Shown here: piece by piece, positions 14,945-18,769 of the stretch | Layout: every line of letters begins with the position of its first letter | Numbering within the stretch: the stretch's first letter is position 1 | NCBI GenBank assembly: GCA_934613415.1 | Contig: CAKTSY010000004.1 | Span: 210,001-242,000, forward strand | DNA: 32,000 nucleotides | Source of the DNA: an uncultured Opitutales bacterium | GTDB lineage: Bacteria > Verrucomicrobiota > Verrucomicrobiia > Opitutales > Intestinicryptomonadaceae | Direction: 5' to 3' | Notes under the pieces: model-generated | What the model was told of the DNA's origin: nothing | Database searches by the model: none | What the model saw: the letters and a program-made list of their open reading frames with translations, nothing else | Program-made: the position numbers and the translations under genes

Positions 14945-14975
14945 GCTGCAAAAATTTTTATCTATAAAAAACGGA

Positions 14976-15021
14976 AAACGCCTTTTTCGAGAATCTCCCC
15001 GAAAAAGGCGTTTGTTTTTTT
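14976..15021. terminator. Bidirectional terminator between the convergent HAD gene and the pentapeptide-repeat gene
   Basis: A perfect 14-bp stem pairs aaacgcctttttcg (14976-14989) with cgaaaaaggcgttt (15000-15013). A T-run follows to 15021, and an A-rich stretch lies to the left. Confidence 0.8.
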
Positions 15022-15039
15022 ACAGGTTTTAAAGAAATT

Positions 15040-18000
15040 TTATTTGCGGCGGTGATAAATTGCCAAACCCAACGCCAGCGCGCCCAAAACAGCGGCAACG
15101 GTTGAAGGTTCCGGAACTTGCGTTGCCAAAATTGTAAACTTGTTTTCGTTTATAACGCAGCTCCAATAGCCGTTAAATGTTTTGCCCTTAATTGTTAGAT
15201 ATAAGCTTTCGTCGGGCTTTAGGTCTTTTAGGCTTGCTATGTTCGAATCGTCTTCAAAGGCAATTAAGTCGAATTGATATTCAACATTGTCTAAAAGGCT
15301 TTCGGTTATGTTCACATTTACTTTGCCGTTAATAACAAGCTTAGACAACGCTTCAACATAAATTTGCGTCGGGTCGCTGGCAGCAGTGTCAATAATAAGC
15401 ACGCCATTTTCGGCTATAGTAAGCGTCTTTTTGTTTACAATGTCTAACCTTGCCCCTGTGTCTAACTTAAGCTCTGCCCCGCCCGAAACGGTTGCGTTGC
15501 TTTCCGAAATCTTCGCGCTAATCATCTCTCCGTCGCTAGTAGCTGGCGTGTATCTGCGAATTGTAAGGTTGTCTGCACCAGACGCCATACCAAAGTTTTT
15601 AATTACACCATCTGCCATTATGGTGTTTTTGTATACGGGAGACGAATCATAGCCACTTTCGGTTACAAAATTAATTGTAGCTCCTCTAAAATCTGCCCTC
15701 GTGAAGTCTGCTTTTTTTGCGGAAACTCTTTCGAATGTTGTGTTGTGCAATATTGCGTCAGTAAAATCCACTCCAAATATGGACATATTTTTAAAAACAG
15801 AGTTTGTTAAATCTTGCGCAACAAAATTCCCCGTGCTAAATGGCGAATTATTAGTATTCGAGGCTTCAAAAGTTATACCGCGCAAATTCTTCTCTTTATA
15901 GCTTTTTGTAGATGCAATTTGACTCCAAGAGACTCCTTGCCTAGAACCACTTGTCGGCTCATATATCTTAAAATAGCAACCTTCAATTATAGCATCTTTA
16001 AAGCTTGCGCTTCTAAGGTAACAAATCGAAAACTTTGAACCTGTTAAATCTTGAGAGCTAAAATCCCAACCTATAAGATCATAAACATAATTGCCGCTTC
16101 CTATAAACGAAACACCCATTAAATTCTTTTCCTTATAACTTTTTGTAGAATACAACTGCTCTTTGCTAAATTTAATTTGAGCACCGCTAATGTCTGCGTC
16201 TGTAAAGTTTGCAGTAGAATCTACCGTGGTATATCCTAAAGACATAACCGCATTTGTTAAGTTTGCATTGCTAAAGTTTGTATTCTTTAGCGTAGCCGAA
16301 ACAAAATTTGAATTGCTTAAATTTGCTCCGCCAAAATCGGTATTTTCCAAAACAGCAGAAGCAAATATGGAATTGCTTAAATTTTTATCTTTAAAATTAG
16401 CACCCGAAAAATCGTTTTTTGTAAAATCTATTCCAGTTAAATCGCCTGTTTTATACGATTTTGTCGAGTATATGTGTTCTTTTAGCAACCCTGTTACATT
16501 CGAAAAATTAACATTATTTATTATGGCATTTTTCATAAATACATTCGAAAATTTAGTCCACGAAAAATTTGAGCCTGTTAAATCTGCACCTGTAAAATTT
16601 ACCATTGTAAGCGTTTTACTGGCAAAATATGAGGATATTTTTGCATGGGAAAAATCTGTACCAGTTAACGAGCCATACCCACCTCCGATAATGGTACAAT
16701 AAGAAAAGTCTGCATCGTCTACATTGGTGCTACCAAAGCTTACATTGTTTAATTTCAAAGACGAAAAGTCCCATCCGCTCATATCAAGTTTGGAGAATTT
16801 GCTCCAGCTTAACTCTCCATTCTTGTAGGATTGAGTGCTATTAAATTGCTCTTCCGTAAATCCAGTAGCCGAACCAAAATCTACATGATCGATATATGTA
16901 TTCGTAAAATCTGTACCCGTTAAATTTGTAGATGCAAAGCTTGCATACGTCAAATCGGCGTTAGACAAATTCCAACCACTTAAATCGTTATTTGAGAAGT
17001 TTATAGATTTTAAAATGCCGTCTTTATAAGACGCCGTAGATTTTAATTGCGCTTCTGTAAAGCCTTTTGCCACCGTTCCCGACAAATCTACACCTTTAAT
17101 TATTGCGTTGGTAAAATTTGTTTTTGCTAGCGTAGCAGACGAAAAGTTTACCGAAGTTAAATTTGCTTGCGAAAGATCAGCAAAAGATAAATCTGACGAA
17201 TAAAATTTTGCACTAGATAAATTTTGCCCAGCAAAATTCCAACCACTTAGATCGTTGCTAGATAGATCTATGCCAGATAGATCCTTATCCTTATAACTTT
17301 TTGTGGAATATAATTGTACTATAGAAAATCCGTTTTTTCGAGCACCCGAAAAACTTGCACCTTTAATTATTGCATTTTCAAAATTTGTGTTGTCGAATTT
17401 CGCGCCATTGAAATTAGCATTGCTTAAATCGCTATCAGTAAAATCTGCCTTTGTTAATGTAGTATTGGAAAAATCCACTTTAGCCAAATTGCTTTCTGTA
17501 AAAATGGCATTTGTTAAATTAATCCCTTTAAAGGCAAAATCGCTTAATTCGTTATTCGAGAAGTTAACGCCTGTTAAATCTTTATCATTATAGCTTTTTG
17601 TTGAACACAGCTGTTCTTTTGTAAATCCTTTATCGACTGTACTTGTAAAATTTGCACCTAATATTGTAGCATTTGTAAAGGTTGCATCTTTTAATACCGC
17701 ATTGCTAAAATTTGCACCTAATATTGTAGCATTTGTAAAGGTTGCATCTTTTAATACCGCATTGCTAAAATTTGCATTTGTCAAATCGCTATTCTTAAGA
17801 TTTGTATTGCTTAAATCATAAGAACTAAAATCGCCACCAGCATATTTAGCACCCGTAAAATCGATACCTGTTAAGGTTTTATCTTTATAACTTTTTGTAG
17901 TTTTTAAATGTTCAAGGCTAAGCCCCGACATAAAAGTAGCACCCAAAATATCTGCATTTTCAAAGTTGGCAGTCGATACCTTTGTAGCACTACTAAAGTC

Positions 18001-18297
18001 TACCCCTTGCAAGTTTGTATTCGAAAAATTTACATTGTTTAGCCCTGCAGCATAAAATATTGCCCCTGCCAAATTTGCGCCTTCAAAAGTGGCGCCTGCA
18101 TAATCCGTATTATATTTACCACCTTTGGAAAAAAGTGTTCCTTTTGCGGCTATAAGATTTTTCCAACTTGAATTTCTGCGCTCAGTTTTTGTTTTATCCG
18201 AGGAATAAGCATATGTCGTTGAAAAATCCCTCCCGCTTACGTCTTGGTTGTCGTAGTTTTCGTTGTCGGCGTATGAGAGGGTCGGCAGGGTTAACAA
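15040..18297 (-). CDS. Giant pentapeptide-repeat protein with C-terminal PEP-CTERM sorting domain; 5' end apparently frame-shifted (see 18302-18370)
   Basis: The 1,085-aa ORF is dominated by A(D/N)LxX-type pentapeptide units (NLSNANFSNAVLKDATFTNA...). A roughly 190-aa non-repeat C-terminal region follows, then VPEPSTVAAVLGALALGLAIYHRRK. The listed start is a TTG with no signal-peptide n-region. This frame has no ATG or GTG upstream before the stop at 18376-18378. Confidence 0.85.
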   Translation of the reverse strand: MLTLPTLSYADNENYDNQDVSGRDFSTTYAYSSDKTKTERRNSSWKNLIAAKGTLFSKGGKYNTDYAGATFEGANLAGAIFYAAGLNNVNFSNTNLQGVDFSSATKVSTANFENADILGATFMSGLSLEHLKTTKSYKDKTLTGIDFTGAKYAGGDFSSYDLSNTNLKNSDLTNANFSNAVLKDATFTNATILGANFSNAVLKDATFTNATILGANFTSTVDKGFTKEQLCSTKSYNDKDLTGVNFSNNELSDFAFKGINLTNAIFTESNLAKVDFSNTTLTKADFTDSDLSNANFNGAKFDNTNFENAIIKGASFSGARKNGFSIVQLYSTKSYKDKDLSGIDLSSNDLSGWNFAGQNLSSAKFYSSDLSFADLSQANLTSVNFSSATLAKTNFTNAIIKGVDLSGTVAKGFTEAQLKSTASYKDGILKSINFSNNDLSGWNLSNADLTYASFASTNLTGTDFTNTYIDHVDFGSATGFTEEQFNSTQSYKNGELSWSKFSKLDMSGWDFSSLKLNNVSFGSTNVDDADFSYCTIIGGGYGSLTGTDFSHAKISSYFASKTLTMVNFTGADLTGSNFSWTKFSNVFMKNAIINNVNFSNVTGLLKEHIYSTKSYKTGDLTGIDFTKNDFSGANFKDKNLSNSIFASAVLENTDFGGANLSNSNFVSATLKNTNFSNANLTNAVMSLGYTTVDSTANFTDADISGAQIKFSKEQLYSTKSYKEKNLMGVSFIGSGNYVYDLIGWDFSSQDLTGSKFSICYLRSASFKDAIIEGCYFKIYEPTSGSRQGVSWSQIASTKSYKEKNLRGITFEASNTNNSPFSTGNFVAQDLTNSVFKNMSIFGVDFTDAILHNTTFERVSAKKADFTRADFRGATINFVTESGYDSSPVYKNTIMADGVIKNFGMASGADNLTIRRYTPATSDGEMISAKISESNATVSGGAELKLDTGARLDIVNKKTLTIAENGVLIIDTAASDPTQIYVEALSKLVINGKVNVNITESLLDNVEYQFDLIAFEDDSNIASLKDLKPDESLYLTIKGKTFNGYWSCVINENKFTILATQVPEPSTVAAVLGALALGLAIYHRRK
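15043..15117 (-). other. PEP-CTERM sorting signal (PEP motif, TM helix, basic tail)
   Basis: The last 25 codons encode VPEPSTVAAVLGALALGLAIYHRRK. This is the canonical tripartite exosortase recognition architecture. Confidence 0.85.
17646..17776. repeat. Perfect 60-bp tandem direct repeat (about 2.2 copies) inside the pentapeptide-repeat gene
   Basis: Positions 17646-17716 are identical to 17706-17776. The protein shows the duplication as NAVLKDATFTNATILGANF twice in a row. Confidence 0.95.
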
Positions 18298-18301
18298 TGC
18301 A

Positions 18302-18370
18302 CTAATGATATATATATATATATATATATATATACGATTTCTTGGGTTGGAGCGTGTTTTTGATGTCCAT
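18302..18370 (-). other. Displaced 5' segment of the pentapeptide-repeat gene: RBS + ATG + signal-peptide n-region, ending at an out-of-frame stop
   Basis: A minus-strand AAAGGAA Shine-Dalgarno (18388-18382) lies 11 nt upstream of the ATG at 18370. Translation gives MDIKNTLQPKKS, then YIYIYIYIY from the TA tract, then H and TAG (18304-18302). The distance from this ATG to the main frame is 73 nt, which is 1 mod 3. Confidence 0.7.
18308..18334. repeat. Perfect dinucleotide microsatellite, 27 nt of alternating AT/TA ((TA)13 plus one base)
   Basis: I counted the tract directly: 'ata' at 18308-18310, two full 10-nt 'tatatatata' blocks, then 'tata' at 18331-18334. It lies between the ATG at 18370 and the body of the pentapeptide-repeat ORF. 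Confidence 0.97.
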
Positions 18371-18522
18371 TTTTTTAAAATTCCTTTAATTGTTTTTCGC
18401 GGGTTTGAAAAATTTCTTACAAAATTTGAGAAGAAAGTATTATTTTTTTGCGGAATTGGCTTTTTTGAATGTTTACTGCAAAAGGCAAATTTTTGAAAAT
18501 TGGCGCACTATTTTTTGAAAAG

Positions 18523-18553
18523 AAAAAAGGCTTTGGAGACTCCAAAGCCTTTT
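18523..18553 (-). terminator. Strong rho-independent terminator upstream of the pentapeptide-repeat gene promoter region
   Basis: A perfect 13-bp stem pairs aaaaggctttgga (18525-18537) with tccaaagcctttt (18541-18553) around a 3-nt loop. The A-run at 18523-18528 gives a U-tract on the minus strand. Confidence 0.75.
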
Positions 18554-18579
18554 GAGTTTTATTCTGAACAATTAACAAA

Positions 18580-18610
18580 TTATTTGCGGCGGCGATATGT
18601 TGTAAATTGC
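18580..18610 (-). pseudogene. Possible relic of a second PEP-CTERM gene 3' end (...YRRRK-stop)
   Basis: ttatttgcggcgg at 18580-18592 is identical to the stop plus last codons of the intact gene at 15040-15052. taaattgc is also shared after an indel. The frame reads ...FTTYRRRK-stop but is closed by a TAG 17 codons upstream. The relic is followed by its own terminator. Confidence 0.3.
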
Positions 18611-18769
18611 AATATAAAACTGCACCTGAATAACTATTCCATATATTCTAATTTTTCGCGAAAATCTTACACAAAATAATTAAATTTTTTACAAAAAGTT
18701 TATACAAAAAAGTGTCGACAAAATACGCCGCGCGCGGCAAGACGCCATATATTTACAAAACAACTTAAT

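Follow-up and report, generated by a model that had tools for sequence, protein, structure and literature searches.

How is a surface protein made from a gene whose signal peptide is interrupted by a dinucleotide repeat? This question is raised by a 32,000-nt stretch of DNA (the window; contig CAKTSY010000004.1, positions 210,001–242,000) from an uncultured Opitutales bacterium of the human gut, in which a tract of 13 TA units lies at the 5' end of a gene for a pentapeptide-repeat protein ending in a PEP-CTERM sorting signal. We consider it likely that the locus is a simple-sequence contingency switch, i.e. that this PEP-CTERM-anchored surface protein is subject to slipped-strand translational phase variation. 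The locus has the features by which contingency loci are recognised: i) a simple sequence repeat (SSR) in the 5' coding region with a unit not divisible by three, ii) repeat lengths that vary between unchanged flanks, iii) both ON and OFF alleles, and iv) an open reading frame (ORF) under selection.

The TA tract and its reading frames

The gene body (15040–18297, minus strand; 1,085 codons) consists of a pentapeptide-repeat array and a conserved C-terminal module, as judged from the ORF list, domain matches and the ratio of nonsynonymous to synonymous substitution rates (dN/dS). In that list the ORF runs from 18297 to 15040 (1,085 aa), starting at a TTG (18295–18297), with the N-terminus MLTLPTLSYA/DNENY. 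Upstream of it, a perfect 27-nt (TA)13T tract (minus strand, 18334–18308) begins 36 nt 3' of an ATG at 18370, which is preceded, at a spacing of 10 nt, by the Shine-Dalgarno (SD)-like sequence AAAGGAA (18381–18387, minus strand). The minus strand reads AAAGGAA-N10-ATG GAC ATC AAA AAC ACG CTC CAA CCC AAG AAA TCG-(TA)13T-CAT TAG TGC A TTG TTA ACC CTG CCG ACC CTC TCA TAC GCC GAC AAC GAA, and the sequence is as the initial annotation had described it: a TA tract splitting a signal peptide, an upstream ATG with AAAGGAA, and a 1,085-aa ORF with a TTG start. The tract lies between a basic n-region, MDIKNTLQPKKS (start codon included, 12 codons at 18335–18370, minus strand; net charge +2), and the remainder of the signal peptide, IISALLTLPTLSYA/DNE. 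This remainder (18268–18309, minus strand) comprises the h- and c-regions with a predicted cleavage site SYA/DNE and overlaps the final 2 nt of the tract.

From the ATG at 18370 the frame reads MDIKNTLQPKKS-YIYIYIYIY-H and then meets the stop TAG at 18304–18302, which ends the 22-codon frame at n = 1 mod 3, n being the number of TA units; the whole short product is MDIKNTLQPKKSYIYIYIYIYH. The frame and its stop had been given correctly at the outset, with the His codon before the TAG left out. Resizing the tract in silico fused the two parts in frame only at n = 2, 5, 8, 11, 14 and 17, which bears out the original proposal that n = 14 or n = 11 would do so. Since an in-frame fusion requires n = 2 mod 3, the window allele (n = 13) is OFF, one TA unit below ON.

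The main frame has no canonical start (ATG, GTG or TTG) upstream of 18297. The absence of such a start had been claimed correctly, together with an upstream stop at 18376–18378; the main-frame stop is in fact the TAG at 18510–18508, and the TAA at 18377–18375 belongs to a different frame. No SD sequence was found in front of the TTG at 18297, and both out-of-frame stops lie no more than 4 nt from it. No other dinucleotide array is present in the window, and a TA run of even 13 nt appeared in none of 100 dinucleotide-preserving shuffles.

The protein family and its normal N-terminus

Tandem A(D/N)LXX pentapeptides make up the bulk of the protein, with a match to Pentapeptide (PF00805) at 1.2e-84 over 12 stretches and further matches to PF13599 and PF13576. 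The PEP-CTERM model TIGR02595 was passed marginally (16.5 bits against a cut-off of 16). The C-terminal end VPEPSTVAAVLGALALGLAIYHRRK (15043–15117) contains the PEP motif, a hydrophobic helix and a basic cluster, and the motif does not vary across the aligned family. It closes a C-terminal module of about 200 aa (YKNTIMADG...; 15043–15648, minus strand) that is 77–89% identical in relatives. The best homologues of the fused protein are 37–46% identical overall, and 77–80% identical in the C-terminal module in the closest ones. A protein search with the whole fused protein returned family members only (best 37% identity) and no close orthologue, a search with the 77-aa N-terminus gave zero candidates, and the exact 1,085-aa protein was absent from the cluster collection searched.

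The signal peptides of 120 homologues and of about 40 loci of the family are ordinary ones, consisting of MKKYI(T/I)I(I/L)S, a hydrophobic stretch and A/DNENY, in which K-Y-I is encoded by AAG TAT ATA. In close relatives the N-terminal DNA reads ATG AAA AAG TAT ATA ACA ATA ATA TCA (L001) and ATG AAA AAG TAT ATA ATA ATA TTG TCT (L002). The fused window reading, ...KK-S-YI-(YI)k-IIS-ALLTLPTLSYA/DNENY, aligns with this family N-terminus, its IISALLTLPTLSYA segment matching the consensus KKYI(T/I)I(I/L)S...A/DNE. Because of this alignment, the tract appears to be an expansion of a TATATA seed encoding the family's conserved Lys-Tyr-Ile, and MLTLPTLSYA appears to be the tail of a signal peptide; the latter had been proposed at the start and agrees with the MKK, 12–15 hydrophobic residues and A/DNE of the homologues.

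Described by charge and hydropathy, the family signal peptides have a net charge of +2 to +3 and a hydrophobic stretch of 12–15 residues, and the product from the TTG has no n-region and a 7-residue core. A candidate Sec signal peptide, as judged by hydropathy and comparison with homologues, is present in the fused frame only, with an n-region of net charge +2, an h-region of 13–21 residues and S-Y-A at -3 to -1. A PEP-CTERM protein must cross the inner membrane.

One family member, P0020 (L001, 708–734), looked like a second split signal peptide and was rejected as such: the database protein begins at an internal Met (MLAAGFVFA...) picked by the gene caller, and the DNA has an upstream ATG, with the true start MKKYITIISMLAAGFVFA 27 nt upstream. 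This case shows that truncated-looking signal peptides in the pentapeptide/PEP-CTERM family can be gene-calling artefacts.

Tract length within the species

Contigs of the same species were recovered from independent gut metagenomes by looking up the esterase, the HAD gene and the large ORF of the window as exact sequences. Nine same-species assemblies, the window included, carry n = 11, 12 or 13 between identical flanks, with 0 mismatches among the nine in the 1,320 nt compared (900 nt on the upstream side of the tract and 420 nt on the downstream side). Two of them have n = 13 (the window and L108; OFF) and six have n = 12 (ERZ4559840, ERZ28615747, ERZ4561717, ERZ4559842, ERR7738179 and ERR7738143; OFF), and the remaining one, L111 (ERR7746779), has n = 11 and is in frame (ON). 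This is one of the two ON alleles that the initial annotation had predicted. Its fusion, MDIKNTLQPKKSYIYIYIYIISALLTLPTLSYADNE..., is open for 206 codons from the upstream ATG to the end of the contig, and the gene caller itself began the ORF at that ATG. More than one strain was sampled, since L110 differs at 31 sites by substitutions inside the gene.

This allele set is a lower bound, with at least 12 further same-species contigs beyond those examined. Look-ups through the neighbouring MFS, L27 and P-II genes, in which similar loci are collapsed, yielded no additional same-species alleles, and the exact-flank DNA pattern had 0 matches in the metagenome_contigs collection, where the organism is not represented in this form.

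Tract length in sister lineages

Scanning species-representative genomes with the C-terminal module gave 24 loci, all from gut Opitutales or related Verrucomicrobiota. The closest of the 24, L003 (metagenome-assembled genome (MAG) SUG3736), is syntenic and about 93% identical over 19 kb; it has a (TA)6T tract and shares the SD sequence, ATG, n-region codons and downstream flank with the window. In a 600-nt alignment of the two, the 7-unit gap in the tract is the sole indel in or adjacent to coding sequence, the 36 n-region nucleotides are identical, and the next 29 codons show 3 synonymous and 0 nonsynonymous changes. Further lineages, with flanks 95–97% identical, were reached through the conserved P-II and L27 neighbours, and have n = 9 (L128 and L132), n = 12 (L131) and an interrupted 18, (TA)9-CA-(TA)8-T (L133). 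Lengths of 6, 9, 11, 12, 13 and interrupted 18 units are thereby represented among the orthologous loci, and the variable TA number anticipated for such loci was found both within one species (11, 12, 13) and in its sister lineages (6, 9, 9, 12, interrupted 18). In L133 (2059–2095) the 37-nt tract is broken by a single T>C; this longest allele is also the sole imperfect one, and an interruption of this kind is expected to stabilise a repeat.

The upstream ATG and n-region are kept in all tract-bearing orthologues, in line with the initial expectation, the 36 nt being identical in 8 lineages and having a 1-nt deletion in L131; the SD-like sequence is kept in L003, L128, L131, L132 and L133. Between lineages, all changes in the signal-peptide remainder are synonymous. 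In L131 (2093–2170) the deletion (ATGGACA-CAAAAAC) makes n = 1 mod 3 the ON register and turns the n-region into MDTKTRSNPRNR, which is still basic. The nominal TTG is there TTA, a synonymous Leu codon in the fused frame, and IISALLTLPTLSYADNENYDNQDVSGRDF is nevertheless kept; the next canonical start in that frame comes only after the cleavage site, 36 codons past the tract.

These data bear on constitutive expression from the TTG at 18297, under which the upstream ATG and tract would form a short leader ORF, either one of irrelevant length or one that does no more than tune translation through coupling. The mechanically listed ORF does begin at this TTG, and the leader ORF ends 4 nt before it or overlaps it, as in coupled genes. 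We nevertheless regard this explanation as very unlikely: L131 has TTA and no other in-frame start for 36 codons, no SD sequence precedes the TTG, and MLTLPTLSYA would provide a 7-residue core with no n-region to a PEP-CTERM protein that has to cross the inner membrane, whereas all homologues have full signal peptides. In addition, the main-frame codons IISA upstream of the TTG are conserved and match the I-I-S of the family. The TTG at 18297 is probably not a real initiation codon and would instead be a Leu codon inside the signal peptide.

The tract seems to be confined to this locus. Apart from the orthologous L003 site, no 5' tract of TA or any other SSR was found in the family, in 24 genome and 80 metagenome loci (1.12 Mb). 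Only two tracts of at least 6 units occur in these 1.12 Mb of related loci, one of them at the orthologous site. A (TA)5 in L016 was rejected as a 5'-end tract because it lies inside an unrelated ORF.

Selection on the gene

Whole-gene dN/dS is 0.18–0.33 against L133, L132, L131 and L110 (about 1,070 codons), and that of the C-terminal module is 0.18 against L003, with neighbouring housekeeping genes at 0.03–0.24. An open frame of 693–1,089 codons free of internal stops is present in every carrier lineage examined; the marks of a pseudogene, i.e. dN/dS near 1 and stops or frameshifts past the first lesion, were not observed. The gene is under purifying selection despite its OFF alleles.

The gene might otherwise have been taken for a dying or dead one, its TA tract being a neutral microsatellite that expanded after loss of function and varies in length without any role. 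The consensus alleles are indeed out of frame in the window and nearly all other assemblies, and the gene is dispensable, being absent in L129 and L136 and swapped for another cassette in L130. Set against this are the open frames of the carrier lineages, retained at up to about 5% flank divergence, the dN/dS values, the purely synonymous changes in the signal-peptide and N-terminal codons, the n-region invariant over 36 nt save for the deletion in L131, and a tract that is perfect in all lineages but one. We therefore think it quite unlikely that the gene is a pseudogene. Both this explanation and initiation at the TTG are hard to reconcile with the data because of the open frames, the low dN/dS, and the loss of the TTG in L131 with its signal-peptide codons kept. 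The observations fit translation of the gene from the upstream ATG whenever the tract length permits.

Weighing the switch against its alternatives

Several observations weigh against a phase-variable switch. The tract lengths were taken from consensus assemblies, and one-unit differences among short-read assemblies of 3–6x (Logan, k = 31) could in part reflect polymerase chain reaction (PCR) stutter or assembly choice. The sole ON allele (1 of about 14 alleles) comes from a single Logan contig, and every ENA and GTDB assembly is OFF. An alternating Tyr/Ile h-region of 19–21 residues, as encoded at n = 11 or 14, is atypical, and no exosortase was found among the genes of the window. TA tracts as a family-wide strategy had to be rejected, the tract being limited to one locus in one species complex and found in 0 of about 100 other family loci. 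Finally, every allele at the level of lineages has a unit number divisible by three (6, 9, 9, 12, 12 and 18), which a simple random walk does not predict.

The first of these points could be extended to the proposal that the length variation is an artefact of assembly or sequencing, and that the true tract is uniform and in frame, with the gene simply ON. PCR stutter readily affects (TA)n tracts, several of the assemblies have 3–6x coverage according to their contig names, and n = 11 and 13 come only from the window and Logan contigs. On the other hand, n = 12 recurs in six independent assemblies, the lengths 6, 9, 9 and interrupted 18 in diverged lineages are not explicable as stutter, tracts of 13 and 19 nt are trivially short for Illumina reads, and zero ENA or GTDB assemblies are in frame. 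An artefact of this kind has, in our opinion, very little chance of being the answer.

Of the lengths that are not multiples of three, n = 11 and 13 were seen only within the near-clonal set. At the level of the reading register the bias is 5/6, owing to the deletion in L131, and its significance is modest as the lineages are not independent. Possible sources are a tendency of selected ON founders to change by +1 unit, selection that favours one OFF register over the other (e.g. through reinitiation at the TTG), or recoding on (UA)n. The idea that all OFF alleles are ON plus one unit is weakened as an account of the bias, since the deletion makes the n = 12 of L131 an 'ON minus 1' allele.

Recoding could act instead of, or besides, switching at the DNA level. 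Here n = 0 mod 3 would be the selected working state, with full-length protein produced when RNA polymerase slips, or the ribosome shifts by 2 nt, on (UA)n, where a displacement of 2 nt leaves both tRNAs and the RNA–DNA hybrid able to re-pair perfectly; alternatively, the short ...SLVHC peptide, or termination-reinitiation at TTG-TTA-A/TAA, would have a role of its own. The six lineage-level alleles are consistent with this, as are the out-of-frame registers of all ENA and GTDB consensus alleles in a gene under purifying selection and the position of both out-of-frame stops within 4 nt of the TTG. However, the n = 12 of L131 is in the other out-of-frame register, giving 5/6 rather than 6/6, the lineages are not independent draws, and n = 11 and n = 13 are both present in the same clone. 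We also know of no established mechanism by which RNA polymerase or the ribosome slips on dinucleotide runs. L131 is the sole lineage in the other register and also the one without the TTG, which is compatible with register selection via reinitiation. Taken as a whole, recoding or a role for the short peptide or for reinitiation seems improbable, and we hold it equally improbable that the excess of n = 0 mod 3 is real and marks an 'OFF' register selected as the working state through (UA)n slippage or through TTG/TAA reinitiation. If true, (UA)n slippage would be a case of dinucleotide-repeat recoding, so far undescribed.

Proposed switch mechanism

Under the switch that we favour, translation would begin at the ATG at 18370, and the (TA)n tract would have the basic n-region of a Sec signal peptide on one side and its hydrophobic core on the other. 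In one register out of three (n = 2 mod 3) the product would be MDIKNTLQPKKS-(YI)k-IISALLTLPTLSYA/DNE..., an exportable precursor (ON). At other lengths the ribosome would stop after 21–25 codons, at the TAG at 18304–18302 or at a TAA overlapping TTG-TTA, and no exportable protein would be made (OFF). The tract would be the hypermutable element: replication slippage would add or remove TA units and lineages would drift between states, while selection would keep the 3.2-kb ORF intact. Switching within a population may be frequent and reversible, a signal peptide containing (YI)k may be competent for export, and the selective agent may be phage, immunoglobulin A (IgA) or the niche.

Comparison with known systems

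Phase variation through SSRs is textbook knowledge in a few pathogens, namely Neisseria, Haemophilus, Helicobacter, Campylobacter and mycoplasmas. The closest parallels come from Neisseria and Helicobacter. The opa (P.II) genes of Neisseria carry CTCTT pentamer repeats in the region encoding the leader peptide (PMC3745409, PMC3899988), and, as at the present locus, the repeat of a surface-protein gene falls within the hydrophobic portion of the encoded signal peptide, its unit number sets the frame and with it translational ON or OFF, and it encodes signal-peptide residues that vary in number (PMC3745409, PMC3899988). The unit is 5 nt in opa and 2 nt here, and every opa copy has the repeat, whereas here it is found at one locus among many paralogues. 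Moreover, Opa is a beta-barrel in the outer membrane of a pathogen rather than a PEP-CTERM protein of a gut commensal, and switching rates have been measured for opa, while here the evidence consists of tract lengths.

In Helicobacter pylori, oipA (also hopZ, sabA and sabB) has CT repeats in the region encoding the signal peptide (PMC10564699). The two loci share a 5' dinucleotide SSR in the signal peptide, slipped-strand frameshifts, and ON and OFF alleles among isolates, and in both the ON frame is marked by the conserved C-terminal end of the signal peptide (FWLHA in oipA, LTLPTLSYA here) (PMC10564699). oipA differs in its repeat (CT, encoding Leu/Ser, against TA, encoding Tyr/Ile) and in having about 70% of isolates ON, compared with 1 of about 14 alleles here. 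H. pylori is not known to possess MutS/L mismatch repair. Given opa CTCTT and oipA CT, the supposition in the initial annotation that a repeat encoding signal-peptide codons was undescribed does not hold (PMC3745409, PMC10564699, PMC3899988).

The same unit in the same length range, (TA)9–11, exerts hypervariable, reversible control over a surface structure at hifA/hifB of Haemophilus influenzae (PMC2651432, PMC3899988). There the tract separates the -35 and -10 elements of divergent promoters and acts on transcription (PMC2651432), whereas here it lies 36 nt into the ORF, where its length determines the frame. A role as a hif-type promoter spacer was rejected for our tract, which lies 3' of the SD sequence and ATG, inside the reading frame, with no promoter-like hexamers flanking it. 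A 5' coding poly(TA) whose copy number differs between genome versions, with phase variation of a surface product proposed, is found in a glucan synthase gene of Mycoplasma iowae (PMC11658790); that protein is a cytoplasmic or membrane synthase with no split signal peptide, from the Mollicutes, and the evidence consists of two genome versions.

Akkermansia muciniphila is, like the present organism, a gut member of the Verrucomicrobiota with surface structures switched ON and OFF, and it has 21 PEP-CTERM proteins (PMC13343947, PMC3048395). Phase variation demonstrated in the Verrucomicrobiota works by DNA inversion (the cps1 inverton of Akkermansia; PMC13343947), in contrast to the slippage proposed here; for SSR slippage there has been no more than a suggestion, made from long mononucleotide tracts close to the ends of Akkermansia genes and without population evidence (PMC3048395). 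We found no report in the literature linking PEP-CTERM proteins with SSR switching. The mechanism itself is already known from opa and oipA; what is new is the phylum and the protein family.

The strain-variable island and other features of the window

The slot between the HAD and esterase genes (14945–18769) is a strain-variable island in lineages that are 93–98% identical in its flanks. The gene is 1,085, 1,065, at least 1,063, at least 1,034 or 693 aa long depending on the lineage, and is absent from L129 and L136. In L130 it is replaced by a cassette of 373-, 330- and 461-aa ORFs including a JukA-like protein and an SNF2 helicase that matches DpdE/ZorD/DrmD defence models, a candidate defence cassette. 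The slot of L131 has an additional 419-aa ORF, and that of L002 has a different 5' half of the gene with a normal signal peptide.

A second length polymorphism, which preserves the frame, lies in the pentapeptide array, where a perfect 60-nt in-frame tandem duplication (ANFSNAVLKDATFTNATILG x2; 20 aa x 2.2) occupies 17646–17776 (minus strand); the same-species assembly L109 (2010–5207) has exactly one 60-nt copy fewer (1,065 against 1,085 aa) and otherwise no difference. The central repeat array (15634–18223) is unalignable between the window species and L003 (1,085 against 693 aa), and both ends of the gene align. Synonymous divergence (dS) within the long form is 0.24–0.37 against L132 and L131, above that of most flanking genes. 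The divergence of the array and the high dS within the gene suggest recombination or gene conversion among paralogues, and the variability of the island together with the 60-nt polymorphism is what one would expect for a surface protein exposed to fluctuating selection.

The neighbouring genes are ordinary metabolic genes, and an Rfam scan of the window found no RNA family. A hairpin with a 13-bp stem and a T-run (18525–18553) is located 155 nt 5' of the ATG, with terminator scores on both strands; in L003 and L131 its stem is conserved and its loop changes. Sigma-70-like hexamers (TTTACA-16-AATAAT) precede it on the gene strand (window 18525–18553 and 18579–18606). The hairpin could be the esterase terminator, insulating the gene from the upstream esterase, or a leader attenuator. 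On the plus strand, several ORFs of 46–170 aa (e.g. 16190–16702) run antisense to the pentapeptide gene between 15192 and 17593; they result mechanically from the composition of the repeats and show no sign of being genes.

Significance

To our knowledge, the switches documented in gut commensals are almost all DNA inversions. The present locus provides population evidence, at the level of sequence, for an SSR switch in an uncultured Verrucomicrobiota (Opitutales) lineage of the gut that occurs in human metagenomes, those of the Hadza included. Such genes will receive a wrong TTG start or a pseudogene label from gene callers and MAG pipelines, and existing metagenomic reads allow a direct tract-length readout of ON/OFF dynamics in hosts. 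The gene on which the switch would act belongs to a large, uncharacterised family of surface proteins with pentapeptide repeats and a PEP-CTERM signal, and the island and repeat polymorphisms mark its product as a target of strong fluctuating selection, e.g. by phage, IgA or niche adhesion.

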